DNA from: a virus
Direction: 5' to 3' (one strand)
Virus record (IMG/VR): IMGVR_UViG_3300045971_000895
Location: 128,001 to 192,000 of that record
Length of the DNA: 64,000 nt
A program made the translations under genes and the position numbers. Numbering within the stretch: position 1 is the first letter of the stretch; each line of letters begins with the position of its first letter. This document shows, one piece after another, positions 1,682-31,770 of this stretch. The notes beneath the pieces are model-generated. The model saw nothing but the letters and a program-made list of their open reading frames with translations. It had not been told where the DNA came from and ran no database searches.

Positions 1682-2320
1682 ATGCGCGCTTGGCTTTCCT
1701 CCTTCGCCGATGAGCTGGAGAAGATCGCTGAGACCGAGAAGGTCGAGGCAGCCAAGCAGCGCGCCGTTGCCAACGTCCAGAGGCTGAAGAAGAGCCTCAA
1801 GCCGGGAGACATCCTCTTCACGGCCCCCATCCGCGAGAAGATGCAGAGCACCTTCGGGAAGTACTTCTACAAGCCCATCTCGAAGGCCGTGCAGGGGACC
1901 GACTTCGGCCATGCCGCCATGTACGTTGGGGACGGGCAGGTGGTGGAGGCTCGGATGGGAGAGACCACCAAGGCGGTCTCCCTGGCATCGGTCGCCAAGA
2001 AGCAGCAGATCGTGGCGATGCGCCCGAACGTCACCCCGAAGGAGCGGCGTGAGGCCATCGCCTACGTCGAGTCGCAGAAGGGGAAGCCCTTCAGCATGAC
2101 GGCGCTTGCCAACACCCTGAACCCCTTCCGTGGGAAGCGGAAGGGGCGAAAGCCGGAAGAGGCAGATGCTCTCATCTGTTCCGCTCTCGTCGCCAATGCC
2201 TACGCTCGGAGGAAGTTCTCCGACGCGCCTCGGGTGGTCACCACTCCCGCCGAGGTGATGAGGTCCCCGCACCTCGTGCCGGTTGCGGCCCTCGTCACTG
2301 ACAAGACTCTCGAGGGCTAA
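1682..2320 (+). CDS. permuted papain-fold (YiiX/NlpC-P60-like) cysteine peptidase/amidase with N-terminal 'FADELEKIA' motif
   Basis: 'GHAAMYVGDGQVVEA' precedes 'ALICSALVANAY'. The His-then-Cys order matches the permuted NlpC/P60 (DUF830-like) fold. A GC hairpin follows at 2323..2344. Confidence 0.5.
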   Translation: MRAWLSSFADELEKIAETEKVEAAKQRAVANVQRLKKSLKPGDILFTAPIREKMQSTFGKYFYKPISKAVQGTDFGHAAMYVGDGQVVEARMGETTKAVSLASVAKKQQIVAMRPNVTPKERREAIAYVESQKGKPFSMTALANTLNPFRGKRKGRKPEEADALICSALVANAYARRKFSDAPRVVTTPAEVMRSPHLVPVAALVTDKTLEG

Positions 2321-4150: not shown

Positions 4151-5965
4151 GTGATGCAAGTCCTCAGTGCAGAAGAGTTCATGCGGAACTACAGCAGCAA
4201 CGTCGTGATGGTGAACGGCGAACCGGAGATCCCCGAGGAGTGGGACTACGAGCCGGCGATCCCCGAGGAGTACATCGACCAGGACGAGCTCGCCAAGAGA
4301 CGGGCCGATCTCATCAACATCTCCCCCTCCCGGTTCACTGAGTTCGCTGTCCGCATCCCCGACAAGGAAAGCCAGAAGCACGTCAACTTCAGCTTCGATG
4401 GGCGTGAGTACCTCCGCCTCCCCTACGACACACCAGCCAGGCGCACCCTCTTCAAGTGCGGCCGCCAAGTGGAGAAGAGCACGCTGCTGGGCAACCGCAC
4501 GCTCTCCTACTGCTGCGTCATCAACGCCTTCAACGTCCTCTACGTCTCGCCCACCAACCAGCAGACCAAGACCTTCTCCAGAGACCGGCTCAAGGAGCCG
4601 ATGGAGACCAGCGAAGTTCTGAAGAGCTGGACCACCACCAAGCTCTCGGACAACGTCTTCGAGAAGCAGTTCATCAACCGGTCGAAGGTGACGCTGCGCT
4701 ACGCGTACCACCACGCCGACCGAGTCCGCGGCATCCCAGCGGACATGATCGAGATCGACGAGATCCAGGACATCAACACCGACAACATCCCCATCATCGA
4801 GGAGTGCGCCTCCCACTCCCCCTACAAGATCTTCACCTACTCAGGGACGCCGAAGACTCTCGACAACGCCATCGAGAAGTACTGGAACGACTTCAGCACC
4901 CAGAACGAATGGGTGGTTCCCTGCGAGAGACACGGCACGCCGGGCGACTCCTCGAGCTGGCACTGGAACATCCTCACGGAAGACAGCATCGGGAAGAAGG
5001 GCCTCGTCTGCGACAAGTGCAACGAGGTCATCAACCCCACGCACCCGATGGCCCAGTGGGCCTCGCTCTACCCGGAGATCCGCAGGCCGGCGCAGGACGG
5101 TGGCCTTGGAGACAAAGCCTTCGAGGGCTTCCGCATCCCGCAGCTGATGGTGCCGTGGCTGAAGTGGGACGACATCCTGGTGAAGTTCCAGACGTACCCG
5201 CGCGGCCGCTTCTACAACGAGGTGCTCGGGCTCTCGTATGACTCTGGCACCCGTCCCCTGATGCAGCAGGACATCATCGACAACTGCATCCAGGGCTTCT
5301 ACATGTCGCCGCAGACCTTGGCGAAGGTGAAGCACGATGCCTCTGGGACCTCGCCCATCTTCTGCGGCATCGACTGGGGCACCGGCGAAGGGACGTACAC
5401 CGTCCTCTCCTTGGGCACCTACATCAACGGCTTCTTCACCATCTTCTACGTCCACCGCTTCGAGGGGCAGGAGCTCGAGCCGCCCATCCAGTTGGGCATT
5501 GTGGAGGAGTTGATCCGGAACTGGCAGGTCGAGTGTGTGGGAGCCGACTACGGCGGCGGCTTCGATCGCAACGACCACCTCACCCGCAAGTTCGGGCAGG
5601 GCCGCATCTGGAAGTACCAGTACAGCCAGCCGGGCCAGAAGGTGAAGTGGGAGGATCCCCTCAAGAGGTTCCTCGTCCACCGCACCGAAGTGATGAGCGA
5701 TGTGTTCAACGCCATCAAGCGAAGGAACGTCTTCCGCTTCCCCGACTGGAGCCACTTCAAGGAACCCTTCGGCGCCGACATGCTGAACATCTTCAGCGAG
5801 TACAACGAGCAGACTCGGCAGATCGAATACAAGCACGCACCCGACCGCACGGACGATACCTTCCACTCCATGCTGCTTTGCTTCCTCGTCTCGATGCTTC
5901 GCGTGCCGCGGCACGATGTGCTCAACCCGTCTGCGCGTACGGGAGCTTCGTCCGAGATCGACTGA
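4151..5965 (+). CDS. terL: terminase large subunit (ATPase + nuclease)
   Basis: Walker A-like 'KCGRQVEKST', Walker B 'IEIDEIQD', and a C-terminal RNaseH-like nuclease region 'FCGIDWGTG'. GGGAGAG RBS. A low-GC intergenic region lies upstream at 3804..4150. Confidence 0.82.
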   Translation: MMQVLSAEEFMRNYSSNVVMVNGEPEIPEEWDYEPAIPEEYIDQDELAKRRADLINISPSRFTEFAVRIPDKESQKHVNFSFDGREYLRLPYDTPARRTLFKCGRQVEKSTLLGNRTLSYCCVINAFNVLYVSPTNQQTKTFSRDRLKEPMETSEVLKSWTTTKLSDNVFEKQFINRSKVTLRYAYHHADRVRGIPADMIEIDEIQDINTDNIPIIEECASHSPYKIFTYSGTPKTLDNAIEKYWNDFSTQNEWVVPCERHGTPGDSSSWHWNILTEDSIGKKGLVCDKCNEVINPTHPMAQWASLYPEIRRPAQDGGLGDKAFEGFRIPQLMVPWLKWDDILVKFQTYPRGRFYNEVLGLSYDSGTRPLMQQDIIDNCIQGFYMSPQTLAKVKHDASGTSPIFCGIDWGTGEGTYTVLSLGTYINGFFTIFYVHRFEGQELEPPIQLGIVEELIRNWQVECVGADYGGGFDRNDHLTRKFGQGRIWKYQYSQPGQKVKWEDPLKRFLVHRTEVMSDVFNAIKRRNVFRFPDWSHFKEPFGADMLNIFSEYNEQTRQIEYKHAPDRTDDTFHSMLLCFLVSMLRVPRHDVLNPSARTGASSEID

Positions 5966-7300: not shown

Positions 7301-7325
7301 CTACGCTGAATCCGGAGCATACCTC

Positions 7326-8270: not shown

Positions 8271-8523
8271 GCTGGCGGCCACGGCTCGCCGGCTGGACGC
8301 CAAGATGCAGAAGGAAGCAGTCGTCGGCGCCATCGCCGGGATGCTGGGGCGTGCCGCAGCCGGGGCCGGGAAGCTGGCCGTGAAGAACCCCGGCACCGCA
8401 ATCACCGCAGGTCTCGGCGGTGTTGGCGCCGTGGGCAGCTACCGGCAGCACAAGGCCGGGTTCGATCCGAACGTCCAGAAGGCCATGCTCGGGGACACGC
8501 CAGTCCCCCCAGGAGTTTCGTGA
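8248..8523 (+). CDS. small Ala/Gly-rich protein (91 aa)
   Basis: GTG start 7 nt after an AAGGAG RBS, overlapping the upstream gene's end. Confidence 0.4.
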   Translation: MAARRLAKLAATARRLDAKMQKEAVVGAIAGMLGRAAAGAGKLAVKNPGTAITAGLGGVGAVGSYRQHKAGFDPNVQKAMLGDTPVPPGVS

Positions 8524-9260
8524 TGCTGACCAAGGAAGCCCTCGTGCAGTACGCCGGTGAGACGGCCCCCGCCCTGATGCAGAAGACGGCCGCGGTGCTG
8601 GTCCAGGTGGAGCAGGAGTCTCCCGAAGACGTGGCCTGGGTGGCTCGCGAGCTCGACGCCATCTCCGAGCACACCTTCGACAAGATCGCGGAGATGGGTG
8701 CCTGGGGGAAGTGGGGGCTGGCCGTAGGTACCGGAGTCGCGGCGGGCATCGCCAACGACCTGGCCGGCGACCTCTACTCTTCGGCCAAGCGAGGACTCTC
8801 CAAAAGCCGCAACCTTCGGGCCATCATGAAGGTCAACCCCGACTTGAAGGCCATGGACAAGCATCGTCTCCAGATGTCCTTCGACGCCATCCACCGCTAC
8901 GCTCCGGAGATGACCGCTGACCCGCTGGTGGGCGGCGCTCTCTTGAAGAGCGTGGCCGACGTCTCGGGCAACGAAGGCGTGGCCATCAAGAACATCATCG
9001 ACATGCGGAAGAACGTGGTCAATCCGTTCCGGCCGGGCGAGTCGATCAAGTACGACAAGCCCGAGGTGCACAAGGGCCCGACCGCCGGCGAGGTCTCTCG
9101 TGACGCCAAGCTCCGTGCGGTCGGAGAACTGCACAAGGGTCTGATGCAGAACATCGACCGAGACAAGGATCTGCGGAAGGATCCGAAGCAGCTCGCGGCG
9201 GCCCTCAAGAAGCAGACCTCGGCCTTCAGCAAGCAGGTCGACTCTCTTGCCAAGAAGTAG
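8520..9260 (+). CDS. hypothetical protein (246 aa)
   Basis: ORF translationally coupled to its neighbours. Confidence 0.5.
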   Translation: MMLTKEALVQYAGETAPALMQKTAAVLVQVEQESPEDVAWVARELDAISEHTFDKIAEMGAWGKWGLAVGTGVAAGIANDLAGDLYSSAKRGLSKSRNLRAIMKVNPDLKAMDKHRLQMSFDAIHRYAPEMTADPLVGGALLKSVADVSGNEGVAIKNIIDMRKNVVNPFRPGESIKYDKPEVHKGPTAGEVSRDAKLRAVGELHKGLMQNIDRDKDLRKDPKQLAAALKKQTSAFSKQVDSLAKK

Positions 9261-10979
9261 ATGATCAAGCGGTCCCACTTCCTCGGCAAGTCCGAGCAGG
9301 GCGTCTTCGCTCAAGGGCTCTTCAGTGGGGCCATGGAGAAGACTGCCGGCGTGCCGGGGCCAGCGTGGGACACCGCCGAGCCGATCAAGAAGCTCATCAA
9401 GACGCTGAAGCCAGAGGACCGGAAGAAGAACTGCTACGTCCTCGTGACCGCTCTTGGCGCCGGGGAGTACTACGGCGCCAACGTGAACTCCGACTTCTTC
9501 CCCTGGGAAGCCCTGATGCACAAGGGGAAGGAGTACGGGTACGAGACCTTCCTCGACTCCCACGCGTTCGCACATCATGCGAACAAGGACCCCGAGCGAG
9601 CGTTCGGGGTCCCTGTCGTCTCGGCCCTGAACGACCGCATGAAGAAGGTCGAGCTCGTCATCAAGCTCGACCGCGAGAAGGCCAAGATGGAGGGGGCCGG
9701 GCACATCGTCGACCGCATCGACGCCGGTGACTTCCCCGACGTCTCGATGGGCTGCAAGGTGCCCTTCGACGTTTGCTCCATCTGCGGCAATCGCTCGAAG
9801 ACCCGCAACGACTACTGCGAACACATGCGCCCAGGCCCGGAGAAGAAGGGCATCTGGGGGCCCAATAGGATTCTCGAGGACGGTCGCCAGATCTGCGTCT
9901 ACAACACCCTCCCCCGCTTCTTCGACATCTCGTTCGTGTTCATCGGCGCAGACAAGATCGCCAAGGCGATGGCGAAGCTGGCATCTCGGGGGAGCCATGT
10001 CTGTATTGGTCAAGTGTGCGCAGTACCTTCTCGAGCAGGAGAGGCTGGCTCCGAACCGGAGCTGTACTCAGCAACTGGCGATCGTCTCGAGCTTGGCAGG
10101 CTTCGCAAGCAAGCTGATGGTGGAGCAGCTGTGCGCCGAGGGCCATGCGGCCGGTGCTGCGCTTCTTGCGAGTCCCAGCAGTCCTGCGAACAAGACAAGC
10201 TCGCCTCCGCCTTCGGAGTGAAGGAAGCCGAGAAGAAGATCTCTTCCATCGTGAAGAAGATCCCCTCGGACAACTTCACGGCTCGGAAGCTGCCGGAGAT
10301 CGAAGCCAAGGAGAAGGACTTCCCCAAGGAGGTTCTGGACGCCTTGGCCGAGTACCCTCTCGCCACCAGCACCGGCGCCACCACTTCAGCAGGCATCATC
10401 CTCAAGCCGCATGAGTTCCAGCGCATCGTCTTGGTGCGGATGGGAGAGATGCCGCTGGCGGATGAGCTGGACGCCAAGAAGCAGGTCTTCCAGCCTTCCG
10501 AAGAGTTCGATGACAGCGTTGACCCTGCGCTGCCTGGGCTTCGAGAGGCCCTCTCGATCGTGATGCCCTACCTCTTGGAGCGGAGCGCATTCGCGCCGGC
10601 CCTCTCTCCGAGGCTGATGAAGTTGGCGAACTCCTCGGAGGAACGAAAGAAGTTCTTCCCACACAGGACGGCTATCGGCCATCCTATGCTGGACAAGGTC
10701 AGCGCGGCGTACAATGGCTACCGCCGCAACATCTTGACGAAGCTGTCGCAGGCAAGAGAGGCAGTACAGAGTGACTCGCAGTTGAGGTCGAACTTCTTCG
10801 GAGATGAACTGGTCACGATGTTCAGCAAGACTTCCAGCCCCAATCCGATCATCGACCACAACACGGTCGCATACGTCATGAGCGCTCATCTCTCGAACCG
10901 CAGCCTGCTGATCGCCACCCGAGGCAATGGTGCCTCCGCGGTGGCCATTCCGTGGCTCCCTGAGGAGCTGTCGGCCTAG
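9261..10979 (+). CDS. putative prohead protease (HK97/S78-like N-terminal domain) with long C-terminal extension
   Basis: 'DVSMGCKV' and 'RFFDISFVFIGADKIAKAMAK' resemble the S78 'SiGF ... EvSlV..PA...A.i' motifs. It sits before the scaffold and capsid genes. The ~330-aa extension contains a Cys cluster 'GPCGRCCASCESQQSCEQ'. Confidence 0.38.
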   Translation: MIKRSHFLGKSEQGVFAQGLFSGAMEKTAGVPGPAWDTAEPIKKLIKTLKPEDRKKNCYVLVTALGAGEYYGANVNSDFFPWEALMHKGKEYGYETFLDSHAFAHHANKDPERAFGVPVVSALNDRMKKVELVIKLDREKAKMEGAGHIVDRIDAGDFPDVSMGCKVPFDVCSICGNRSKTRNDYCEHMRPGPEKKGIWGPNRILEDGRQICVYNTLPRFFDISFVFIGADKIAKAMAKLASRGSHVCIGQVCAVPSRAGEAGSEPELYSATGDRLELGRLRKQADGGAAVRRGPCGRCCASCESQQSCEQDKLASAFGVKEAEKKISSIVKKIPSDNFTARKLPEIEAKEKDFPKEVLDALAEYPLATSTGATTSAGIILKPHEFQRIVLVRMGEMPLADELDAKKQVFQPSEEFDDSVDPALPGLREALSIVMPYLLERSAFAPALSPRLMKLANSSEERKKFFPHRTAIGHPMLDKVSAAYNGYRRNILTKLSQAREAVQSDSQLRSNFFGDELVTMFSKTSSPNPIIDHNTVAYVMSAHLSNRSLLIATRGNGASAVAIPWLPEELSA

Positions 10980-11050
10980 AGGGTGCGGAAGCCCCTCGTA
11001 GACGGCCCACACTGATCGCCGAAGTTCAACGAATCGAAGGAGAAGAACAC

Positions 11051-11839
11051 ATGGACAAGACGCTCGCAGAGATCTACGGGACCAATCAGGAGGACGACCA
11101 GGAGAAGCTGGCCGCCGCGGCTGCCGCCGAGGAGCTGACCGAGGACGGCGCCATCGACCTCGAGGGCCTGACCGAGGAGGACCTGGAGGCCGTCGCCGCC
11201 GAGGTGCTCGAGGCCAGCGCCGAGGGCGAGGAGGAGACCGAGGAGGTCGAGGAGCCCGCCGAGGAGGAGAAGACCGCCTCCGACGAGGAGCTCGAGGAGA
11301 AGGTCGCCGAGGCCGACCAGATGGGCCGCATCATGGCCCACGCCTACGTGCAGGAGCTGCGGCAGATCGAGAAGACCGCCGGCGCCCGCATCGACGCGGC
11401 CAAGGCGGCCGTCAAGGGCGTCGGCTCCAAGGTCATGGCGCACGTCCGCTCGGCCGGCTCCAAGGCCGGCGCGGCGGGCAAGCGCGGCGGCGAGCTGCTG
11501 GCCGGCGGCAAGGGTGCCAAGGGCGCCAAGGAGAAGTTCCTCGGCGCGGTCGGCGAGCGCAAGAAGGTCTGGGGCGCCCGCGCGGGCGCCGTGGCCGCCA
11601 CCGGCGCCGCCGGGGCCGGGGCGAAGAAGGCCTTCGGCAAGAAGGAGAAGAAGGCCTCCGCCTTCGAGACCCTGGCCGAGCAGCGCGCCAACGAGATCCT
11701 CGAGGCCTCCGGCATCGAGGAGCAGGAGACCGAGGTCACCAAGTACGACGTCCTCGCCGACGCCGTCGAGCAGCGCGCGGCCGAGATCCTGGCCGAGAAC
11801 GGCTACGAGCTGGCCGACAGCGACGAGAGCGCCGAGTAG
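11051..11839 (+). CDS. acidic scaffolding-like protein
   Basis: Extremely Glu/Ala-rich with low complexity. Its position before the capsid gene fits a scaffold. The C-terminal helix motif 'LAEQRANEILEASGIE' occurs twice. A terminator hairpin follows at 11848..11880. Confidence 0.5.
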   Translation: MDKTLAEIYGTNQEDDQEKLAAAAAAEELTEDGAIDLEGLTEEDLEAVAAEVLEASAEGEEETEEVEEPAEEEKTASDEELEEKVAEADQMGRIMAHAYVQELRQIEKTAGARIDAAKAAVKGVGSKVMAHVRSAGSKAGAAGKRGGELLAGGKGAKGAKEKFLGAVGERKKVWGARAGAVAATGAAGAGAKKAFGKKEKKASAFETLAEQRANEILEASGIEEQETEVTKYDVLADAVEQRAAEILAENGYELADSDESAE

Positions 11840-11899
11840 CTCACCCGGGGAGGGAGGGGCTTCACGGCCCCTCCCCTCTCCACCCCTTCAGAGAACGCC

Positions 11900-12451
11900 A
11901 TGACCTACGACGAACTCAACGACCTGGCCGAGGAGATCCTCCTCGAGAAGACTGCCGCCCGCGGGAAGCACGCGCGGCGCAAGGCAGCCCAGACGGCGCG
12001 TGCCGCCGGCACCATGGCTCCTCACGACTCCGGCTCGAAGCCGGCCAGCAGCCCCGCTCCGGCGGGCGGCTCCTCTGCCTCTTCGATCGGAGACGCCGCG
12101 GGCGAGGCATCGAAGCGGAACAAGGCTCGTCTCGAAGAGCTGGCGTCGCACGCCACGCAGGAGTCCCCCTCTCGCCGCGCCCGGGCCACTGCTCGGCTCG
12201 AGCGGATTCAGAAGGGCCGGTCGGTCAAGGACCGCATCGGTCACGCCGCGCGGCGCGCAGTGAAGGCCGCTCCGGGCATGGTCAAGAAGCACTGGGGGAA
12301 GGGCCTCGCCGCCGCCGCCGGCACCGTCGCCGTCCACCAGGCCGTCAAGCACTTCGGAGGGGAGAAGCGGGCGAGCGCGCTGGACACGCTCGCCATGGCT
12401 CGGGCCTACGAGATCCTCGCGGAGAGCGGCATCGAAGCAGAGCTGGAGTAG
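11900..12451 (+). CDS. scaffolding-like paralog (183 aa)
   Basis: Shares 'DTLAMARAYEILAESGIEAELE' and N-terminal 'LAEEILLE' with the upstream gene. Confidence 0.45.
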   Translation: MTYDELNDLAEEILLEKTAARGKHARRKAAQTARAAGTMAPHDSGSKPASSPAPAGGSSASSIGDAAGEASKRNKARLEELASHATQESPSRRARATARLERIQKGRSVKDRIGHAARRAVKAAPGMVKKHWGKGLAAAAGTVAVHQAVKHFGGEKRASALDTLAMARAYEILAESGIEAELE

Positions 12452-12459
12452 GGGAGCAC

Positions 12460-12705
12460 GTGCATACAGCAGACTCCAACCACAAGACCAAGAACGCAGA
12501 CAGCTTGGCATTGTGGGGGGGATTCGCTGATGAGCTTTCGAAGATCGCCATGACGACGCCGTCCAACATCACCGCCATGGCCCGCCCCAAGCCAATGAAG
12601 ATGGGGCAGACGTCGATGCCACGAGAGTCACCGGCGATGTCGCCAATGAAGGATTCGCTGTCGAGCACGAAGATCACAACCCCGCCGCCCGTCACGGCGG
12701 GCTGA
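12460..12705 (+). CDS. small protein with 'FADELSKIA' motif (81 aa)
   Basis: Carries the motif 'GGFADELSKIAMTT' that recurs in other proteins in this window. Confidence 0.4.
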   Translation: MHTADSNHKTKNADSLALWGGFADELSKIAMTTPSNITAMARPKPMKMGQTSMPRESPAMSPMKDSLSSTKITTPPPVTAG

Positions 12706-12716
12706 AGGAGAAGAAG

Positions 12717-13715
12717 ATGCACACCAAGCTGGCAGGCCGCCTCCCGCTCCAGGACATGATCGCGCAGCACATCGAGTCCGCTCGGGTGAAGCTCGCCGCG
12801 GCCGAGGGCAAGGAGTCGAAGAAGGACGAGAAGGACGAGAAGAAGGTCGAGAAGCTCGTGAAGTACGAGAAGCGCGAGCACGGCGGGAAGATCCCGACCG
12901 AGAAGGAAGAGGAGGCCGAGAAGAAGGCTTCCTTCGACGCCTTCGACCCCGACTCCGTCGAGAAGCTGGCCTCTGCTCTGGACCTCGTGGCCGAGAAGCT
13001 GGCCGGCGACTCCATCGAGCTCGGCGGCGAGAAGCCCCAGGGCGGCGAGGTCCTCCCGACCAAGGGCGTGACCGCCGGCAAGCAGACCTACACCGGGGCC
13101 AAGGCCAAGACCCAGATCCCGCAGAGCTCCAAGGAGAAGGCCACCAAGGACAACCCGGGTGCCGCCACCGCCATGGAGACGGACGAGACCCGCAAGGTCG
13201 GCCCCTCCGCGGCCTACCCGGCCAAGGGCGTCCTCAAGACCGCGGGCCAGGGTGTGCTCGAGCGCATCGCCGCCATGCGCGCCCAGGCCAACGGCGAAGC
13301 CATCGTGGTCCCGGAGAAGACCGCCGGCGCCATCGACTACGTCCTCGAGAAGATCAAGGCCGCCGAGTTCCACGGTGGCGGCGAGACCCTCGACGACAAG
13401 TCGGCCCCCATCCCCAGCAACGCGGGCCGGCAGATGATCGCCAGCAACAAGGCTCCCGTCGGCGCCACCAAGCGCGAGGCCAAGGCTCCCCGCAAGGCGG
13501 AGCTGGCCCAGGTGCTCAAGGAGCCGGCCCTCACATCTTCGACCGACAACACGGTCAACCAGAACCTGCGGAACGCCTCCAAGGGTGGCGTGAAGATCGC
13601 AGCGGCGAAGGCCTACCTCCGCAAGATCGCGGAGGAGGGCTGCAAGTGCGACGGGGACGGTACCTGCCGTCACTGCAAGCTCAAGACGGCCGTCGAGGCC
13701 AAGAAGGCCTCGTAA
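12717..13715 (+). CDS. hypothetical Lys/Glu-rich head-associated protein (332 aa)
   Basis: Long ORF in the head module. C-terminal 'CKCDGDGTCRHC' Cys cluster. Confidence 0.5.
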   Translation: MHTKLAGRLPLQDMIAQHIESARVKLAAAEGKESKKDEKDEKKVEKLVKYEKREHGGKIPTEKEEEAEKKASFDAFDPDSVEKLASALDLVAEKLAGDSIELGGEKPQGGEVLPTKGVTAGKQTYTGAKAKTQIPQSSKEKATKDNPGAATAMETDETRKVGPSAAYPAKGVLKTAGQGVLERIAAMRAQANGEAIVVPEKTAGAIDYVLEKIKAAEFHGGGETLDDKSAPIPSNAGRQMIASNKAPVGATKREAKAPRKAELAQVLKEPALTSSTDNTVNQNLRNASKGGVKIAAAKAYLRKIAEEGCKCDGDGTCRHCKLKTAVEAKKAS

Positions 13716-13746
13716 CAACACCACCGAGAAAGGCAAGGAGAACGTC

Positions 13747-14121
13747 ATGCGGAAGATCAGCAACGTCGAGGTCAGCCAGATGATGAAGCTGGCGGCCGAG
13801 AACCTCCGGACTCTCTCGGAGGAGAACCAGGGGCTCCGCGAGAAGGTCGCGGAGTTCGAGAAGAAGGCGCAGGCCGAGACCATCGCTCACCTGATGGAGG
13901 AGAAGGGCCTCGAGCCCGAGGCCTCCTTCCAGGAGAAGGTGGCTGGTCTGCTCCAGCGTGACGACCTCGAGGTCGTCAGGCAGGCCGTCGGTCTGTCGGC
14001 CCCCCAGATGAAGCTCGCCTCGGTCCATGATGAAGGGACCATCGAGGTCGAGGGCATGGGGACTGACGAGGACGGCGGTTCCGCGGCGGCAGGCTTCGCC
14101 GCGGCCCTGGCCTCCGCCTAG
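13747..14121 (+). CDS. coiled-coil protein (124 aa)
   Basis: ORF with a GGAG RBS. Heptad-like composition. Confidence 0.45.
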   Translation: MRKISNVEVSQMMKLAAENLRTLSEENQGLREKVAEFEKKAQAETIAHLMEEKGLEPEASFQEKVAGLLQRDDLEVVRQAVGLSAPQMKLASVHDEGTIEVEGMGTDEDGGSAAAGFAAALASA

Positions 14122-14176
14122 CTGTACCATTCGCTGCATCCAACGCTACCCCTTGAAGGAATAGGAGACGACAACC

Positions 14177-14662
14177 ATGGCCGGACCGAACTTCGAGCTC
14201 ATCACCGAGCTCCAGACCCTGACCCGCCGCGACTTCACCATCGCGGACAGCACCATCCTCGCCCCCACGGGCACACTCCCTCTCGTCGACGGCGAGTGGC
14301 TCGAGATCAACTCGAGCTACCAGCTGGCGCGCGGCGCGACGGGCGTCCAGTCGTACAGCCCCCTCACCTTCCCGGTGCACACCGAGCGCGGTCGGTACGA
14401 CACGCAGGCCATCGGCAAGGTCAACGTCCTGATGCTCGGCATGTACGAGGCCGAGACCCAGGTCATGGTCGCCTCGGGCATCACCCTGGGCGAGGGGCTG
14501 ATCGTGAACAGCCTCGCCTCCGGTGCCCACCTGGGCCGGCGCGGTCTCGTCGAGCAGGGCTCGGCGACGGCCACCACCCTGGTCGTGGGCTACGCGACCA
14601 AGCTGCCCGCCGCCAACGGTGGGAAGCTCCGCTTCGTCCACTTCGGGAACGCGCTGGTGTAG
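14177..14662 (+). CDS. hypothetical head protein (161 aa), possibly decoration/auxiliary capsid protein
   Basis: Lies immediately upstream of the capsid gene. AGGAGA RBS. Confidence 0.4.
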   Translation: MAGPNFELITELQTLTRRDFTIADSTILAPTGTLPLVDGEWLEINSSYQLARGATGVQSYSPLTFPVHTERGRYDTQAIGKVNVLMLGMYEAETQVMVASGITLGEGLIVNSLASGAHLGRRGLVEQGSATATTLVVGYATKLPAANGGKLRFVHFGNALV

Positions 14663-14698
14663 TTCGGCGCTCACACAGAAAGCACAGGAGACACAACC

Positions 14699-15820
14699 AT
14701 GAGCGCCACTGCCGTTCCAGCCAAGGTCCTCAACGACCTCTTCTTCGAGAAGATCGGGTCCACCGAGGGCAAGGACAAGATCGCCGAGTTCGGAGGCACC
14801 TACATCCGGGACCGCCTCCGTGAGGTCTCGTTCGCCCGCAAGATCATCCCGCCCACTCCCGTCCAGCGGAGCGAGCTCCAGCGCTCGGTGAACCACGACA
14901 CGCTCGTCAAGATCGTGGACATCGAGCCGAACTCGAAGGCCACCAGCCTGACCTTCCGCGGTCAGCCGACGGCTCGGTTCATCCGCGCCCCGCGCTTCGA
15001 GATCCCCTTCTTCACCATCTCCTCGGAGAAGTTCGAGAAGACGGAGCAGGAGCTCCTGGCGTACGAGATGCCCATCACCAAGATCATCGAGGAGAACTCG
15101 GTGAAGGACATCCAGGCGATCGAAGACCGCCAGTTCCTGATCTTCGTCGAGGCCTGCATCCAGGCGATGCAGCTCTCCGCCAACGGTGGCACCGCGACCT
15201 CCAACAAGGTCAACGGCGGCACCGCCGTGGTGTCGTCGGTCATCAAGGGCGCCGGCGCCGTCACCGGCAACGCGAACACCTTCACGGTGTACTCGCTCCA
15301 GAAGAACGACTTCGTCAAGCTGAAGCAGCTCCTGCACCGGCGCTTCCTCCGGTCGGAGCGGCTCCTGATGACGGAGCCGGACTACGACACCCTCTCGACC
15401 TGGACCATGACCGAGGTCTGGAACATCGCTGCCGAGACGGCGACCGAGGGCTGGAAGAGCAACACCGTGGTGGGCCTGAAGATCATCCGGACCATCAAGA
15501 CCAACATCCTGCGCGAGGGCAACGTGTACTGCTTCACGGCGCCCGAGTTCTTCGGCCGGTTCTACATCCTGAACCAGACGAAGTTCTACATCGACAAGAT
15601 CGCCAACCTCATCACCTGGCAGAGCTGGGAAGACATCGGGATGGGCTTCGGCAACGTCGCCGCGGTCACCAAGCTCGAGCTCTTCGGTGGTGGCGTGGTC
15701 CCCGGCGCCTCGCCGGACTCCGGCTACGCGGCCGTCCTGCCGATGGACGAGTCCGACCTGAACCCGGTCAACAACCTGGCCGACGCCGGGACGACCTACC
15801 CGCAGGTCGACCAGTTCTAA
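14699..15820 (+). CDS. major capsid protein
   Basis: 373 aa. Its size and position are right for a capsid protein. Followed by the strongest terminator in the window. No internal Cys-rich or low-complexity region. The assignment rests on context plus general HK97-like length and composition. Confidence 0.6.
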   Translation: MSATAVPAKVLNDLFFEKIGSTEGKDKIAEFGGTYIRDRLREVSFARKIIPPTPVQRSELQRSVNHDTLVKIVDIEPNSKATSLTFRGQPTARFIRAPRFEIPFFTISSEKFEKTEQELLAYEMPITKIIEENSVKDIQAIEDRQFLIFVEACIQAMQLSANGGTATSNKVNGGTAVVSSVIKGAGAVTGNANTFTVYSLQKNDFVKLKQLLHRRFLRSERLLMTEPDYDTLSTWTMTEVWNIAAETATEGWKSNTVVGLKIIRTIKTNILREGNVYCFTAPEFFGRFYILNQTKFYIDKIANLITWQSWEDIGMGFGNVAAVTKLELFGGGVVPGASPDSGYAAVLPMDESDLNPVNNLADAGTTYPQVDQF

Positions 15821-15852
15821 AGCTGGTCGCCTTCGGAGCAGTCATGTAGCTT

Positions 15853-15890
15853 GAGGGGCGGGCGGGAGACCGCCCGCCCCTCTTCTCTTT
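15853..15890 (+). terminator. rho-independent terminator after capsid gene
   Basis: gaggggcgggcgg-gaga-ccgcccgcccctc followed by ttctcttt. Confidence 0.75.
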
Positions 15891-15907
15891 CAGCAGCAGG
15901 AGGTTTC

Positions 15908-16345
15908 ATGGACTACATCATCCGTCCCGCCTACGTCGGTGGTCCCCCGAGCGACAAGCAGCGCACCCACCCGAAGTTCACGGAGGAGCCGGTCATCGGC
16001 GCCTTCCACGTGCGGCGCGGCTCCTTCATCCGCCTGGACGAGGGCCAGTACGCGGCCGCCAAGCACCAGATCGACACCCTGCTCGAGGCCGACGCCATCA
16101 TCGTGACCCGCGAGGGCGAGCCGGCCCCGGTCCAGCAGGCCTCCATGGAGGGCACCAAGCTCCCCGAGGACCTCTCCATCCCCGTCACCCCCATCGCCGG
16201 CCAGGCCTGGCCTGACCCCGTCCAGGTGGCCGAGCAGGCTGCTGCCGACGAGGCCGCCAAGGCCGCCGAGGCCACCACCGACGCTCCGAGCGACGTCACC
16301 ACCACCGAGGTCCCGGTGGCCCGCGCCCCCAAGAAGAAGAAGTAG
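15908..16345 (+). CDS. hypothetical protein (145 aa)
   Basis: Start 'MDYIIRPAYVGG' with AGGAGG RBS. The ORF-track start at 15851 lies inside the terminator. Confidence 0.5.
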   Translation: MDYIIRPAYVGGPPSDKQRTHPKFTEEPVIGAFHVRRGSFIRLDEGQYAAAKHQIDTLLEADAIIVTREGEPAPVQQASMEGTKLPEDLSIPVTPIAGQAWPDPVQVAEQAAADEAAKAAEATTDAPSDVTTTEVPVARAPKKKK

Positions 16346-16348
16346 ACC

Positions 16349-16711
16349 ATGCGGGTCTTCAACCTCACGGCGGAGCCTCTCGCCTTCCGCACCAAGGTGA
16401 TCCCGCCCAGCGGCGGGAGCCTCGACTTCCAGGAGCTCGACTTCTTCATCCCGAACAGGGAGCAGGAGCTCGCGCGAGCCGGCACCATCTCCTTCGGGTC
16501 TCTGCCTCGTGGCTGGGTCCCGAAGGTCATCATCCCTCCCCCACCGCCGGCCAAGACGGCCCCCGTCAAGGTGGTGGAGAAGCAGGTCGTCCAAGAGAAG
16601 GTCGAGAAGGTCTACGTCGACCCCAAGGTGGCCGAGGTTGCCCTGCTGCCCGAAGAGAAGAAGCCGGAGCCGGTCTTCCAGTCCACCGCGGAGAAGTTCA
16701 AGAAGAGGTAG
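16349..16711 (+). CDS. hypothetical Pro-rich protein (120 aa)
   Basis: ORF. Confidence 0.4.
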   Translation: MRVFNLTAEPLAFRTKVIPPSGGSLDFQELDFFIPNREQELARAGTISFGSLPRGWVPKVIIPPPPPAKTAPVKVVEKQVVQEKVEKVYVDPKVAEVALLPEEKKPEPVFQSTAEKFKKR

Positions 16712-16714
16712 GCC

Positions 16715-17251
16715 GTGTCGGACCCCATCAGCAACAAGATCGACCCTGTCCTGCCTGCCCGGAACGCGAGCGAGTTCGCGGACCTTCCGGCATCGCAGAC
16801 GCAGCTCGACAGCTTCATCCAGCTGGTGCGGGCCTACATGCGGGACTACCCGGAGCTCAACCGGCTCATCGCCGGCGAGGAGAGCTCCAACCGGCAGATC
16901 GCCTGGGCCATCATCGACGCGGTGGACGACTTCAACACCACCCCGCCCTTCACCCGCTTCGGCCTGAACGACTACCCCTCTCGCTCCCTCCTGCTGCGCG
17001 CCACAGTCATCACCCTGCTGGAGTCGGTGGGTCTTCTCCAGACCCGCAACCACCTCCAGTTCTCTGACGGTGGCATCACCGTCGGCGTGAACGACAAGAC
17101 GCCCTTCCTCCAAGCCTGGATCCAGCTCTTCCGGAACAGCTACGAGGACAAGAAGATGAAGATCAAGGTCGCCTACAACATCGAGTCGGCCTGGGGCGGC
17201 GGCATCCATTCCGAGTACCGCTTCATCAACAACTTCTACGGGGACTGGTGA
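16715..17251 (+). CDS. hypothetical protein (178 aa), possible head completion/connector
   Basis: GTG start. Position downstream of the capsid gene. Confidence 0.4.
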   Translation: MSDPISNKIDPVLPARNASEFADLPASQTQLDSFIQLVRAYMRDYPELNRLIAGEESSNRQIAWAIIDAVDDFNTTPPFTRFGLNDYPSRSLLLRATVITLLESVGLLQTRNHLQFSDGGITVGVNDKTPFLQAWIQLFRNSYEDKKMKIKVAYNIESAWGGGIHSEYRFINNFYGDW

Positions 17252-17619
17252 TGCAGGTCCTCCGTGGCGGCCTGGCGGACAAGAAGAAGGCCAAGGACTT
17301 CTCCCCCAAGGCGCTGGCACAGGGCCGCAAGGTGGAGAGCGAGCACACCAGCAACCCTCGCATCGCCACCGAGATCGCCGAGGACCACCTCACGGAGGAC
17401 CCGATGTACTACGACAAGCTGAAGCTCATCGAGAAGAAGGCGTTCGCCGACGAGCTCATGAAGATCGCCAAGAAGCTGCCCTTCGGCGCGGGCGTGTACA
17501 AGGACCTCGCCCAGCACTTCGCAGTCAAGCCGAAGCTGAAGCTGCCGGGCTCTGCGATCACAGGCACGCCTGCCGCTGCTGTCCGCAACCCTGGAGTCAT
17601 TGCCCGCATCGGCGGGTAG
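17248..17619 (+). CDS. hypothetical protein (123 aa) with 'FADELMKIA' motif
   Basis: Start overlaps the previous stop (ATGA). Carries the recurring motif 'KKAFADELMKIAKK'. Confidence 0.45.
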   Translation: MMQVLRGGLADKKKAKDFSPKALAQGRKVESEHTSNPRIATEIAEDHLTEDPMYYDKLKLIEKKAFADELMKIAKKLPFGAGVYKDLAQHFAVKPKLKLPGSAITGTPAAAVRNPGVIARIGG

Positions 17620-17628
17620 GAGCACCAC

Positions 17629-17763
17629 ATGACCGTCAAGACCTTCGCCAACGTCGCAGACCTCCAGGCCTACATCACGGCCAACGTCATCACGCTCGCC
17701 AAGACCGTCGCCATCTACTTCGACGCGGCCAGCGGACACCACGTCCTCGTCCACACGCCGTAG
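17629..17763 (+). CDS. small protein (44 aa)
   Basis: 'MTVKTFANVADLQAYITANVITLAKTVAIYFDAASGHHVLVHTP' with AGGAG RBS. Too short for the ORF track. Confidence 0.3.
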   Translation: MTVKTFANVADLQAYITANVITLAKTVAIYFDAASGHHVLVHTP

Positions 17764-17799
17764 TTCCCACACCCTCCTCTACCCGGTAGGCTGGGAGCC

Positions 17800-18225
17800 A
17801 TGAACGTCGTGACCGTGCGCGCCTTCAGAGACGAGCTCACCAAGATCGCCGCAGCTGGCGGTCTCGCTGGTCTCAGCGCCAAGGCTCTCGGCGTCCTCAA
17901 GTCGAACCCCATGGCGGTGAGCGCCGCTCTCGGTGCTGCGACGTTTGTGGCGGCCCAGTACGCCGCCAACAGAGCCCCCAAGGACGGCGGCAAGTCGGGG
18001 CAGCAGAGGCTCTTCTCGAGGATCCAGGCCTCCTCTGAGCACGACGAGAAGCAGCGCAAGAAGGAAGGGAAGAAGCCTACCTTCGTGAGCGAGTCTCGTC
18101 GCATCCTCGCCAAGCCAATGAGTCAGCTTGCGACTCTCTCCACCAAGCATCCCCTTCCTGCGGCCCTTCCTGCGGCCGCCGTCGGCGCCAAGGTCGGCGT
18201 CGAGTTCGCCAAGCTGCTGTTCTAG
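17800..18225 (+). CDS. hypothetical protein (141 aa) with N-terminal 'FRDELTKIA' motif
   Basis: 'MNVVTVRAFRDELTKIAAAGG'. Confidence 0.45.
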   Translation: MNVVTVRAFRDELTKIAAAGGLAGLSAKALGVLKSNPMAVSAALGAATFVAAQYAANRAPKDGGKSGQQRLFSRIQASSEHDEKQRKKEGKKPTFVSESRRILAKPMSQLATLSTKHPLPAALPAAAVGAKVGVEFAKLLF

Positions 18226-21825: not shown

Positions 21826-24800
21826 ATGCGCGAGATTCTCAGTCAGGTTCGCATCGAACGTACGGGGCTTGGCGGTGTTCGAGAGGTCCTCGAGAAGGCC
21901 AACACGGTATTCAAGGCAGAGCTCGCTGAGGTCACCACCTGGTGGTGGAACGCAAACACGTCCGCCCCGAACCTGTACCCGCTCATGTGGCCCTGGAGGT
22001 CACATCCCGCGCTTGCCGCAGGAGCTGTACTGACTTCCCCAGTTCGTCACAGTTTCCTTGGGCTCGACAATACCTACGGGTATCCGGCGTACAACATTCA
22101 GGCCAACATTGCGACGAACGTCGACATCGGCAGGATGAGGATTGCCACAACTACCCCCGTGTCGGTTCTACAGGCCACCATTCCGGCGGTGTTCTCTGGC
22201 ATCGGTATCGGCCATGCGCAGAACCGTACTCTCAATTACAACAGCTACTGGGGTCACAACAACATGGTGTCGCTGACCGACCTGGGGGTTCAGCAGATCG
22301 GTATTCCTTACCTTCACCCGGCAGCAGCATGCACCGTGACCACGTCCGTGGGGCTGTCTTACATCACGTTCGTCACGAGCACGGTTAGCCTCAACTTCAG
22401 CGGAGGCCACACCCATCAGCATCTCACATCAATCTTGCGTATCGAGACGGGCGCAGATCGAGGGCAGTACTTCGTCCAACACCTCGATCGGACCAACGGC
22501 CGGCTGTATCTCCAGACGATGACGGGACAGCCGTTTATCGCACAGGCCTCTACCGTCGGAGTCGCCGCCAGCCTTTCGCAGCGTCCAGCCTTCTTCAATG
22601 AGACCGCCGTCATGTGGGCCTCTGTCGGGCGTGTCGACGTCGATGGTTTCTTCGACCCCGGTGAGAGCAGGAACTCACTCGCTTTCAGGGTTCACTTCGA
22701 GAAGAGCGGATCTCCGTCTCCGACAAACGAGGCGCAGCGTGGATCCTACTGGTTCTCCCATCGGCCTTGGTTGTGGGGGTCAGGGGGCTTTGACAGCGCC
22801 GCCAACTACGGTTCTGAGGACAATGGCTGTGCCTCGCATCGACTCATCTACCCCTCCATCGCCACTGAAGGGGGCTTCCACTACAACGTGAGTGGAGGAG
22901 TTACCGCATACTCTATCTGCACGGGGATGGGTCTCGACAAGGTGTCTCAGCGCCTCTGGCTCGCCCATGGCGACAGGTACACTGCCGGAGCCCCGTCCAG
23001 CATCGGGTATTGGAACTACAAGAGCCCGGAGACGATGCGGGAAGTTGCAACCACCACCGGTACTCCGAACGACCCTCTTCCGACGCCATTCACTCTTCCT
23101 GATGCCTCAACTGCGTGTGGGTGCGAGATCGGTAGTGACGGCACCGCGTACTTCCCGATCTACCACCTTACGGACAATACGAAGAACGGCGTGCTCGCCA
23201 TCAAGCGCGACCTGTCCTACACGTTCCTCACTGGGGCCGCGCTCGGCACCACGGGAGGCTATGCTCCTTCCGGTCTGGTGCTCGACAAGACGCGCTTCCG
23301 CTCGGGTACGGCGGGAGACGCTGCCTCGACCGTTGCCGGCCACATCACCTCTGCTACTGGGGCGTTCGCGGCGCAGGATATCGGCCGCTGCATCACCCTC
23401 ACAGGTAACGCGCAGGACAACGGGACATACCTCATCTCGGCGAGGAACTCCGCTACCGACGTCACGGTCACAACCCTCGCCGGCGGTGCCGTCTCCTTCG
23501 CCGGGGGAAGTGGGGGCACCTACTCCATCGGCGACCGCATCTACTTGTTCACGTCGACGGACACCGCATGGAACGCGGGAAAGATGTCGTACCTGGACTC
23601 GCTCTCTCTCACTCAGCGGTTTACCAAGACCGTGACGATGACGAACGGGACCACCATCGCACCGTACTACCTCGGCAGCGTGCCCTCCGCGTGCGTGGAT
23701 CCCCTCAATGGCAACGTCTTCTGGTACTCCACCGACACGGCGGGCCGCCTCAACAAGTTTGTGGTCTCCACAGGCTTGGTCGAACAACGGCCTCTCACAG
23801 ACTTCGCCGTTCAAGTTCCTGGATCCAACTTCAACCCGACGGCTCCGACCATCGCCTACTCGGTGGCGGTCAACACCAACACCTACTTCCGCGAGCTCTG
23901 GGTCGGTACCAACCAAGGACAGTTTAAGTTCAACCCTGACACATTCTCCGCACAGTTCTCTCGCTATTTCGGACTAAACACCACGGGAACATACGCGGAA
24001 GCTGACGGCAAACTGATGCTGGACGGCACAGACGCATCGTACACCAACATCCCCAAGGTCAGACAGTTCCTCTTCATGCCCGATGGGCAAGTCTACTGCT
24101 CACTGATGGAGATAGCCCAACAGGCCTACAGCCACCTCGTTCACCTCAATAGAGAATCGGACTGCTTCGAGGTCGGTGGGTTCCACGTCTCCGAGATGCC
24201 ATCGTACTGGTCTGGGGCTCCATACTTCACCAGCACCCCCAACATGCTGTACTTCATGGATGGGTATGGGGGATTCGTCTGGTATCGCCCGGAACGCAAC
24301 CTTGGAGCGACCTATCCTGGGCTTGTTGTCGCACACGTGAGCGCCACCCACTATCAGTGGGTCGGTGGGGCGTGGGTCGCTCGGGAAGTCGTGCGTGGGT
24401 CGCTTCCGGACGCCACGAGCTCCCCGGGCTGCCTCACCAAGCCTCTGCACACGACACTTGACGACCTCGTCTTTGGGGTGAAGGTCAAGTTCACTCGACA
24501 GGCTGGGGTCGGAGGGGAGAACACGGACTTCATCGGCCGTGTTGGCCAACTCGGTACCGCCAAGAACGACGGGGCCACTGCGTCTGGGGCCGGGAGCTTC
24601 ACCGGCTCTGGTTTCTCGTCCCTCAGTTTCATCGCTGCCGACAAGGGCCGTTACTACCTCCGGGTCGAGAGTGGCGCCGACGCGGGCGTCTACATCATCT
24701 CTGCTGTGACGAACGACACTCTTCTGACTCTCCAGAAGTTCAACGGCGTGGCTCTCTTGGCCACCGCCACAGCCGGATCTCTCCAGTACACGATCTGGGA

Positions 24801-30533: not shown

Positions 30534-31445
30534 ATGCTGGAGGTAACCAAGTTCTGGACTCGCTCCTTCGACCTCGACAGGGTTGATCTCTTCTGGGAGA
30601 TCGCCAACGTCCCTGGTCCGCGCTCGGATGCGGATCGGCACGATGTCTTGGAGCACGAGATCTTCGTTCTTCGGGCCGGGGACAGCCCAATGGGTCCGTA
30701 CGAGCAGATCGGCGGACCGCTTGTGGATCAGTACTTCTTCCGCGATGTGAAGGTGAACCTCCTTCACAAGTGGCGGCAGTACTTCTACAAGCTGCGGGTC
30801 GTGGATCGCCGGACGGGTGAGGCCAAGGAGTTCGGCCCCACTTCGTCCGGCGAGGATGCTCCCGACCTCATCGGCTCCGAGATCCAGCGCCAAGAGGACG
30901 TCCTCTTCCGCGAGTTCGTGGGGAGGAAGGGTTACCTCTTCATCTCGAGAACCTTCGGGCCGAGATGCTCTTGCTTCGACGTCACGCTGGGCCGCATCAC
31001 CAGGTCGAACCACCGGCCCTGCTATGGCACCGGGTGGTTGGGCGGCTACATGCAGCCCATCGAAGTCTTCGCCCAGTTCGACCCCAACCCCAAGAACGTC
31101 ACGCACAGCTCTCTGCCTCCGCAACAGGCAAGTGACACCTCCGCGAGGATGATCTCCTTCCCACCTGTGTCCCCCAAGGACATACTGGTCGAGGCAGACA
31201 ACAGGCGCTGGAGAGTCATCAGCGTTCGCAGCACCCAGAGGCTTCGCGCAGTGGTTCGGCAGGAGATCCAGCTTCACGAGATCCCCAGAGGGGATATCGA
31301 GTACGACCTCCCGGTGAACGTCAACGAGCGAGAGATGGTGGCCGTCGCCGACCGCAACTACACGAATCCCCAGAACGTCGAGAGCGGCAAGAGCTACTCC
31401 GACATCCTCTCCGCCTACGGACACCCCAGTGGAACTCTCCGGTAA
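30534..31445 (+). CDS. hypothetical tail/baseplate protein (303 aa)
   Basis: ORF with AGGAG RBS. Confidence 0.45.
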   Translation: MLEVTKFWTRSFDLDRVDLFWEIANVPGPRSDADRHDVLEHEIFVLRAGDSPMGPYEQIGGPLVDQYFFRDVKVNLLHKWRQYFYKLRVVDRRTGEAKEFGPTSSGEDAPDLIGSEIQRQEDVLFREFVGRKGYLFISRTFGPRCSCFDVTLGRITRSNHRPCYGTGWLGGYMQPIEVFAQFDPNPKNVTHSSLPPQQASDTSARMISFPPVSPKDILVEADNRRWRVISVRSTQRLRAVVRQEIQLHEIPRGDIEYDLPVNVNEREMVAVADRNYTNPQNVESGKSYSDILSAYGHPSGTLR

Positions 31446-31770
31446 CCTGCACCCCATCACGAAGCTCGCCTTCATCGACGAGCTCGAGAAGATCTCGAGA
31501 GAGGTCTCCCCGAGGGCACAGGCGAACCGGGACCAGGCCAAGAAGTTCTTGAAGAGCACCGCCATCATGATGGCAGGCTCTGCCGCTGGAGTGGGCACCT
31601 TCATGGTTGGAGACTTGCTGGCAGGGAAGCTCTTCGGTGCCGGATGGAACAGCCTCCCCAAGGAGGCTCGCCACATGATCCTCACGGCAGCAGGTGGCGC
31701 GGCCGCAGTAGGGTCTGCTCACTACGTGAAGCGCCTCGCTGAAGAGCGAGAGAAGTACATGCGCGCATGA
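31429..31770 (+). CDS. small protein with 'FIDELEKIS' motif and Gly/Ala-rich hydrophobic segment (113 aa)
   Basis: 'KLAFIDELEKISREV' followed by 'AIMMAGSAAGVGTFMVGDLLAG'. Confidence 0.4.
   Translation: MELSGNLHPITKLAFIDELEKISREVSPRAQANRDQAKKFLKSTAIMMAGSAAGVGTFMVGDLLAGKLFGAGWNSLPKEARHMILTAAGGAAAVGSAHYVKRLAEEREKYMRA

Follow-up and report, generated by a model that had tools for sequence, protein, structure and literature searches.

A candidate capsid-targeting and processing tag on unrelated basic proteins of large uncultured phages

Five dissimilar proteins of one phage share a short peptide

We analysed 64,000 nt of viral DNA (hereafter the window: positions 128,001 to 192,000 of IMG/VR record IMGVR_UViG_3300045971_000895, one strand, 63% G+C), in which a preliminary description made from the sequence alone had pointed to a recurrent F-x-DEL-x-KIA motif in five small, otherwise dissimilar proteins. 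Three proteins of the window had 100% identical counterparts on a JGI contig of 198,259 bp, which places the window in an uncultured phage genome of ~198 kb. A six-frame regular-expression search of the window with the pattern F.DEL.KI[AS] returned five matches (nt 1703–1729, 12523–12549, 17443–17469, 17824–17850 and 31471–31497), all in + strand frames with coding-type G+C content at third codon positions (GC3), and none in the remaining frames or anywhere on the − strand. For 31 predicted proteins of this composition (10,770 aa), 3.7e-5 matches are expected against the five observed, and a looser version of the motif gave 5 observed versus 0.005 expected. None of 5000 shuffled proteomes, the control named in the preliminary description, contained a single match, confirming both the recurrence of the motif and its enrichment. 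The codons varied among the copies (GAT/GAC, CTG/CTT/CTC and GCT/GCC/TCG), indicating that the repeat was kept at the protein level and did not reflect a recent DNA duplication. We refer to the peptide containing the motif as the tag; its carriers in the window are the following.

1682..1729, + strand: tag copy 1, MRAWLSSFADELEKIA, residues 1–16 of a 212-aa protein encoded at 1682–2320
12460..12705, + strand: small head-module gene, 81 aa from GTG 12460, with tag copy 2, GGFADELSKIA (motif at nt 12523–12549)
17248..17619, + strand: 123-aa protein with tag copy 3, FADELMKIA, in mid-protein (motif at nt 17443–17469)
17800..18225, + strand: 141-aa protein with tag copy 4, MNVVTVRAFRDELTKIA (motif at residues 9–17, nt 17824–17850)
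31429..31770, + strand: 113-aa protein with tag copy 5, FIDELEKIS (motif at nt 31471–31497)

Four of the five copies were N-terminal, as first described, lying 8–22 residues from the predicted start: the motif began at residue 8 in the 1682 protein, 9 in the 17800 protein, 15 in the 31429 protein and 22 in the 12460 protein (counted from the GTG). The remaining copy, in the 17248 protein, had been placed near the C-terminus; it lies in the middle of the protein, at residues 66–74 of 123, directly after a DUF5661 domain. The regions following the motif showed no mutual similarity by BLAST and fell into five different clusters, so the carriers are indeed otherwise dissimilar.

The 1682 protein was recognised as a permuted papain-like peptidase of the C92/NlpC-P60 type (PF05708, E 6.7e-6), the fold already suspected for one carrier, with an isoelectric point (pI) after the tag of 10.0. 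Only 29 homologues were detectable in 5.8 billion proteins, and the tag was present in 24–25 of the 29, down to 31% identity, with one homologue carrying ILQKLAG only; His77 and Cys166 were invariant. In an AlphaFold2 model of this protein (predicted local distance difference test score, 92) the tag lay within an N-terminal helix of residues 2–25, modelled at lower confidence than the domain behind it. In the 12460 protein the motif occupies residues 22–30 if GTG 12460 is the start, a choice backed by a GGGGAG Shine-Dalgarno sequence and by an upstream peptide conserved in orthologues. Its tag is followed by a 51-aa basic tail (pI 10.4), rich in Pro, Ser and Thr and ending in PPPVTAG. Throughout the family a tagged orthologue of this gene lies ~2.2–2.8 kb upstream of the capsid gene; these orthologues form one of the two largest clusters of tagged cargo. 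The remainder of the 17800 protein is Gly/Ala-rich and basic (pI 10.5), and the tag was kept in its orthologues (L001 and L002). The 31429 protein, in which a shorter motif, ITKLA (nt 31456–31470), directly precedes the tag and the remainder is basic (pI 10.3), belongs to a cluster of seven orthologues, all with N-terminal LFDELxKIA.

The tag is conserved as a unit across a phage group

The closest cultured relatives of the phage were distant (Salmonella phage Arash and three Vibrio phages, with ~30% capsid and 36% protease identity), and a related capsid gene was found on at least 174 IMG/VR contigs, many of them 130–210 kb in length. A loose form of the motif was searched for in 1.07 Mb of DNA flanking the capsid genes in 80 relatives, and all 80 occurrences were on the coding strand, with none on the opposite one. 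An exact DNA-pattern scan of IMG/VR with TTYNNNGAYGARCTNNNNAARATHGC, which admitted only CTN codons for Leu and GCN codons for Ala, identified at least 115 stretches on contigs of 29–70% G+C. Among the matches listed, 29 of 114 pattern loci (2–14 kb each) also carried a head gene of the same family, one of them on a contig of 37% G+C whose capsid and protease belong to the same families, and at least 18 further pattern loci came from contigs already among those with a related capsid gene. The tag can therefore be assigned to this phage group, in whose genomes the tagged genes are dispersed.

Pooling all loci with the window (the pattern loci being those among the matches listed) gave 201 unique tag instances, with gene starts in the relatives' loci taken from the nearest start codon. 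The nearest ATG peaked 8 codons upstream of the F, the residue before the F was A, G or S in 92% of instances, positions −3 to −5 were hydrophobic, the D, E and K of the tag were invariant, and no conservation extended beyond K-I-A. This family-wide positional pattern defined the unit as M-x6-[AGS]-F-x-D-E-L-x-K-I-A, predicted to be an acidic amphipathic helix of ~17 residues with F, L and I on one face.

The attached proteins are diverse and strongly basic

Among the matches listed, 174 N-terminal carriers fell into 106 BLAST clusters. Pfam domains were recognised in only ~6 of 59 representatives: a SNF2 helicase, a GNAT with glyoxalase, a MazG with a P-loop domain, DUF6321, DUF5661 and the C92 peptidase. 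Not all carriers are small, as the five in the window had suggested, since relatives place the tag on a ~700-aa SNF2 helicase and on other enzymes. After removal of the tag the median pI of the attached proteins was 10.2, with 82–88% of them above 9, compared with a median of 8.0 and 41% above 9 for 1527 untagged open reading frames (ORFs) of 60–300 aa from the same loci (Mann–Whitney p = 1e-17); all five window carriers had a pI of at least 10. Transmembrane-like segments (19-residue hydropathy ≥1.6) were not enriched, at 5% of the attached proteins versus 4%, which led us to abandon a membrane-segment reading of the Gly/Ala-rich stretches in the 17800 and 31429 proteins.

The SNF2-type helicase of ~700 aa was tagged in several relatives (L085, L098 and L101). 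In Arash, the gp217 'DNA helicase' adjoins the head module and was detected in a virion preparation (PMC10585845).

A shorter motif marks the head-assembly proteins and the prohead protease

The last five residues of the tag fit a short motif, [LIMVF]-x-K-[ITVL]-[AS], that recurs in the head-assembly genes of the window. These genes, with the terminase and capsid genes beside them, are listed below; most neighbouring genes had no annotation in PHROGs.

4151..5965, + strand: large terminase subunit (phrog_675, E 9e-59), a context marker with 0 short-motif sites
7206–8270, + strand: head-assembly gene upstream of the protease, homologue of Arash gp220, 4 short-motif sites
8520–9260, + strand: head-assembly gene upstream of the protease, 2 short-motif sites, one at residue 20
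9261..10979, + strand: prohead protease, 572 aa, catalytic domain at ~residues 40–226 with the T4 gp21/herpesvirus assemblin fold
11051–11839, + strand: acidic scaffold-like gene between protease and capsid gene, with IEKTAG
11900–12451, + strand: scaffold-like gene between protease and capsid gene, with LEKTAA at residue 15
12717–13715, + strand: scaffold-like gene between protease and capsid gene, 3 short-motif sites
13747–14121, + strand: scaffold-like gene with MRKIS at residue 1 and MMKLA at residue 12
14699..15820, + strand: major capsid protein, 373 aa (phrog_2522), 30% identical to the Arash capsid protein

Across the head-assembly genes (7206–14121) the short motif occurred 20 times versus 1.9 ± 1.35 in per-protein shuffles (0 of 2000 reached 20); all other + strand proteins of the window together held 4 copies versus 3.7 expected. 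In the orthologue sets its density was 0.5–1.5 per 100 aa for head-assembly proteins and 0–0.03 per 100 aa for the terminase and the 14177, 16715, 30534, 31767 and 32570 proteins (terminase/tail region). Enrichment was residue-specific, with Lys 9.5-fold, Arg 0.67-fold and Glu 0.66-fold at the central position and Ala 12-fold and Ser 4.5-fold at the final one, indicating that the short motif is not a generic amphipathic pattern. The residue following it was S, A, E or G in 73% of cases. The T4 rule of an L/I-x-E site cleaved after Glu, which the preliminary description had invoked, did not apply to this element: the shared residues are hydrophobic-x-K-[ITVL]-[AS], with Lys favoured and Glu depleted, and the lack of a conserved L/I-x-E at the end of the tag makes cleavage after Glu unlikely.

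The 9261 protein, proposed earlier as a candidate prohead protease, gave a head-maturation-protease match. Sequence comparison with the PDB found no match for it; only fold comparison succeeded, returning the T4 gp21 protease fold in support of the earlier assignment. His105/106 and Ser162 were invariant among its orthologues. The short motif occurs in the window protease as MEKTA (nt 9333), MAKLA (nt 9969), LMKLA (10614), LDKVS (10689), LTKLS (10734) and FSKTS (10821). At the first of these (MEKTAG, residue 25) K27 and A29 were invariant in the orthologues, as were K239 and A241 at the second (MAKLAS, residue 237, the end of the catalytic domain), and both flanking sites fell in low-confidence segments of the model (residues 23–34 and 227–249); conserved copies were also present in the C-terminal part. 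Several orthologues reach 930–1680 aa through intein/homing-endonuclease insertions (Pfam Hint, Intein_splicing and LAGLIDADG_3; L007, L014, L106, L010 and L062; P0003, P0017, P0048 and P0105), and the window protease carries no such insertion.

An N-terminal alignment of the capsid proteins revealed EGK(D/E)KIAE(F/Y)GG as a near-invariant element of the family (residues 22–33, nt 14762–14797), at the place where the Arash and Vibrio phage D69 capsid proteins have L(V/T)KEAG. This element may be the boundary of a capsid propeptide of ~29 residues.

Internal tags lie at domain junctions

Tags that were not N-terminal stood at domain junctions in the loci of three relatives and in the window 17248 protein. 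The latter consists of DUF5661 (residues 26–64, nt 17323–17439; PF18905, E 1.9e-8), IEKKA, the tag and a 49-aa basic tail; the order of DUF5661 followed by the tag was kept in its homologues, and we read the protein as a polyprotein of two parts joined at the tag. The corresponding arrangements in relatives were a ligase-like domain, TEKAA, the tag FLDELRKIA and a C92 peptidase (L093); a tag, the SNF2 helicase, a second tag and a 189-aa domain (L101); and a J-domain, a tag and a 45-aa tail (L123). Whether a further K-x-[AS] site usually precedes an internal tag was also considered; support was weak (20/46 versus 19/135), since many 'internal' cases are chance matches or have starts that are uncertain, and the idea was set aside.

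DUF5661 was found in three settings: before the tag in the window 17248 protein, after the tag in a related-locus cargo beginning MINLEKIVQDAFIDELQKLS, and in the linker of the protease, where it is inserted between short-motif sites (P0085, P0088, P0103, P0106, P0108 and P0115). It seems to behave as a mobile small cargo module. In some relatives a short module, (M)PFKSEAQRRWM-AKHP..., precedes the tag (P0133; L093 at ~nt 11560–11680), and is apparently another small unit joined to cargo through the tag.

Cultured relatives carry the short motif

Cultured phages that share the protease subfamily displayed the same short-motif pattern, without the full tag. The copies in Arash (six in gp220, three in gp225 and two in the protease homologue gp222) were concentrated at 145–155 kb. 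Head-module genes of Vibrio phage D69 held 4, 2, 2, 1 and 1 copies, and the protease domain has LQKVAS at its end. A small basic protein of this phage (L200 nt 26930–27385) begins MDNVDTLLEKIA / MDNVDTLLEKIAAKSKK / MDNVDTLLEKIAAKSKKPRKKK, a minimal version of the tag. Another minimal version, MSKKISRLKKTA, opens gp20 of Bacillus phage G (L201 nt 9644–10132), in which the protease domain of gp19 is preceded by LVKTAA and VVKIAP and followed by LEKVAS and LLKIAS; a preprint on the phage G proteome contained no cleavage-site data. Mycobacteriophage Myrna showed little of the short-motif pattern. The annotated start of Arash gp225 (L081 nt 10864–11466) overlaps gp224 by 70 nt, and an internal Met gives a tag-like MNTDLIRNRAGDLSKIANG; to judge by the sequence, the deposited start may be too far upstream.

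Other features of the window

Two long ORFs of the structural region (21826–27219, 1797 aa, and 32570–35908, 1112 aa) had no PHROG or Pfam match, and the second of them had a GC3 of 95%; Arash encodes a comparable structural protein of 2549 aa downstream of its capsid gene. Several overlapping ORFs at 48000–52600 had a codon-position-2 G+C of 0.7–0.8, unusually high relative to the rest of the window, which suggests low-complexity or repeat-rich coding sequence, or non-coding sequence.

A proposed propeptide for capsid targeting and processing

We propose, with a probability of roughly 0.6, that the tag is an N-terminal propeptide for capsid targeting and processing that is removed by the phage's own gp21-fold protease. 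The tag helix would dock unrelated, strongly basic proteins on the interior of the assembling prohead (the scaffold core, the protease or the shell) and would terminate in a hydrophobic-x-K-[ITVL]-[AS] site, which the protease encoded at 9261–10979 would recognise, probably cutting after Ala. The same protease would cut itself and degrade the scaffold-like proteins at the short motif, and the basic mature proteins would remain in the head with the DNA, presumably to be delivered to the host upon infection. An internal tag, as in the 17248 protein and the polyproteins of relatives, would be a domain junction that is cut. The assemblins, which are related to gp21-fold proteases, cut between Ala and Ser. 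The preliminary description had likewise suggested a packaging or processing tag recognised by the 9261 protease. The gp21 fold, the ~10-fold enrichment of the short motif in head-assembly proteins and its presence at the protease boundaries speak for this link, as do the N-terminal position of the tag, its portability over 100+ families, its conservation and the basic cargo; cleavage and packaging we infer from these patterns.

Several points weigh against the proposal. For every member of the group, docking, cleavage, packaging and ejection are deduced steps, and the cut after Ala, placed there because conservation ends at this residue and the next one is small, is a guess. The short motif alone does not define a cut site, since the site at capsid residue 300 (IDKIA, 42/45) and some other conserved sites are probably structural and not cut, and its enrichment could reflect binding rather than cleavage. 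Counts over orthologues are non-independent events. A tblastn search with a 20-aa consensus of the full tag gave 0 matches in 50,697 phage records, and a six-frame scan of the whole Arash genome found the short motif only and no N-terminal F.DEL.KIA; a cultured phage with the full tag was thus not found. The sole virion proteome for a relative, that of Arash, lists 116 proteins including ribonucleotide reductase/metabolic enzymes (PMC10585845), and with such a composition it does not discriminate.

Two alternatives each differ from the proposed propeptide in one step, and we regard both as unlikely, to a similar degree. The tag might be a docking peptide only, whose helix binds inside the prohead (shell, scaffold or portal) and stays, in the manner of an encapsulin cargo-loading peptide or of the C-terminal helices of the P22 scaffold, the short motifs of the scaffold proteins being multivalent binding sites. 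Such a role would suit an amphipathic helix with invariant D, E and K, the repetition of the short motif in scaffold-like proteins and the conserved K-I-A in the N-arm of the capsid protein, and it would need no cleavage of the tag. It fits poorly with motifs located in flexible linkers that exactly border the catalytic domain of the protease, and at polyprotein domain junctions, where processing is expected, and with conservation that stops sharply past the final Ala; moreover, known gp21-fold proteases remove such propeptides (PMC5694885, PMC10052503). Conversely, the tag might be a processing site only, a pro-sequence that keeps proteins inactive or marks junctions, with recruitment to the head by other means, for example by binding of the basic body to DNA. 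Internal tags at domain junctions are compatible with this view, the attached proteins, being basic, could enter the head along with DNA, and scaffold proteins, as well as Arash, D69 and phage G, have hydrophobic-x-K-x-A alone, with no F-x-D-E. However, the scaffold sites lack the invariant F, D and E of the tag, the constant spacing from the Met and the small residue at −1. These features indicate that the tag holds information beyond a cleavage site, and T4 provides a precedent for targeting and cleavage in a single peptide.

Slightly less probable again is that the peptide is not a head signal, and that it sends proteins elsewhere (to the membrane, a secretion route or a compartment made by the phage) or serves to recruit a host factor or chaperone, with the resemblance to the head motif being coincidental. 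The tagged genes are scattered over the genomes, beyond the structural module, and several attached proteins contain Gly/Ala-rich hydrophobic stretches. The genes of T4 internal proteins are likewise dispersed, however, and the frequencies of transmembrane-like segments given above argue against a membrane destination. The tag itself is unlike Sec, Tat or lipoprotein signals, which have a positively charged n-region, a hydrophobic h-region and an A-x-A or lipobox site: it is net negative (D, E and often a second E), without a hydrophobic run or core, and with an invariant Lys at position −3 counted from the final Ala. Furthermore, the head-assembly module itself contains the tagged gene with the highest conservation, and the K- and A-specific short motif is common to the protease and the scaffold proteins. 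Chance, or shared ancestry without function, with five diverged paralogues retaining an N-terminal stretch, is highly improbable. Small proteins do diverge fast, and the missing BLAST similarity would be compatible with homology, but the motif was expected 4e-5 times and observed 5 times, the tag was under purifying selection in proteins as far apart as 31% identity, and some instances are internal, at domain junctions. The spread of the tag over 106 clusters with different folds (SNF2 helicase, GNAT, MazG and papain-like peptidase) already contradicts this explanation.

Implications

As a signal the tag is robust and widespread; its mechanism is plausible yet unproven, and the underlying concept is an established one. 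We advance only tentatively, at a little short of an even chance, the broader claim of a global clade of ~130–210-kb uncultured phages in which a 17-residue leader loads 100+ families of basic proteins and enzymes and the protease specificity has changed from Glu to Lys/Ala. A Lys/Ala-based site would be a new specificity within the gp21 fold, and prohead proteases of this fold would not be limited to cutting after glutamate. If the proposal is correct, sequence alone would list the proteins packed into the heads, and probably injected, for a large and widespread group of uncultured phages; proteins of this kind often act first against host defences, and metagenomes do not otherwise reveal them. 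The compact peptide would also extend the short list of tags with which foreign proteins can be loaded into phage capsids, and Pfam DUF5661, as a small cargo domain moving between tags and the protease linker, would gain a first functional context. Full-text literature searches with the motif strings and DUF5661 returned nothing relevant.

Comparison with known systems

Encapsulin cargo-loading peptides are likewise short, portable and able to load unrelated cargo into a shell of the HK97 fold. They are usually C-terminal, rich in Gly, Ser and Leu, uncleaved and found in loci that have an encapsulin shell gene but neither protease nor terminase, and they bear no sequence resemblance to the tag, which is N-terminal and acidic-helical and belongs to a tailed-phage head module with terminase, protease and capsid protein. 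The capsid and scaffold proteins of Staphylococcus phage 80alpha share an identical short N-terminal leader that is removed during assembly by the host protease PrsP. There, a host enzyme makes the cut, two substrates are known and the leader has a different sequence. Herpesvirus assemblin maturation and release sites have the form (V/L/I)-x-A↓S and so also end in Ala followed by a small residue; they contain no counterpart to the invariant Lys two residues before the Ala and are confined to the scaffold-protease polyprotein, not cargo.

The phages phiKZ, 201phi2-1 and SPN3US, in which N-terminal propeptides of head and ejection proteins are cut by gp175 / gp245, resemble the present group in being large phages with many packaged proteins (PMC10052503, PMC5694885). 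In phiKZ and SPN3US the gp21-type protease removes its own C-terminal part, as well as the propeptides of scaffold and cargo proteins, by cutting at one short motif, and long propeptides contain multiple sites (PMC5694885, PMC10052503). In phiKZ-type systems this motif is (S/A/G)-x-E, cut after Glu, and the propeptides are mostly 111–254 aa and protein-specific (PMC10052503). The layout is the same here with a different motif; the tag is ~17 aa, near-identical between proteins and without an x-E terminus.

The closest known system is the capsid-targeting sequence (CTS) of T4, carried by IPI, IPII, IPIII, Alt and gp24 and processed by the gp21 protease. It comprises 10–20 N-terminal residues common to internal proteins, which are removed by gp21, and all gp21-type proteases characterised so far cut after Glu (PMC5694885). 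In both systems a short N-terminal peptide is shared by unrelated proteins and small basic cargo is attached (PMC5694885, and PMC9026906 for T4); the peptide ends in a protease consensus in T4 and in a candidate site here, in the company of a protease and of scaffold proteins with many copies. Unlike the CTS, the tag has no similarity to MKTYQEFIAE, carries hydrophobic-x-K-[ITVL]-[AS] instead of L/I-x-E, is found on 100+ protein families over a whole uncultured clade and occurs internally in polyproteins as well. The initial impression of a peptide reminiscent of the T4 CTS is thus borne out by the shared N-terminal peptide and the gp21-fold protease, and it fails at the L/I-x-E end and in sequence similarity. 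By our analysis, the tag falls outside the sequence-level definition of a CTS and appears to function like one in every computable respect.

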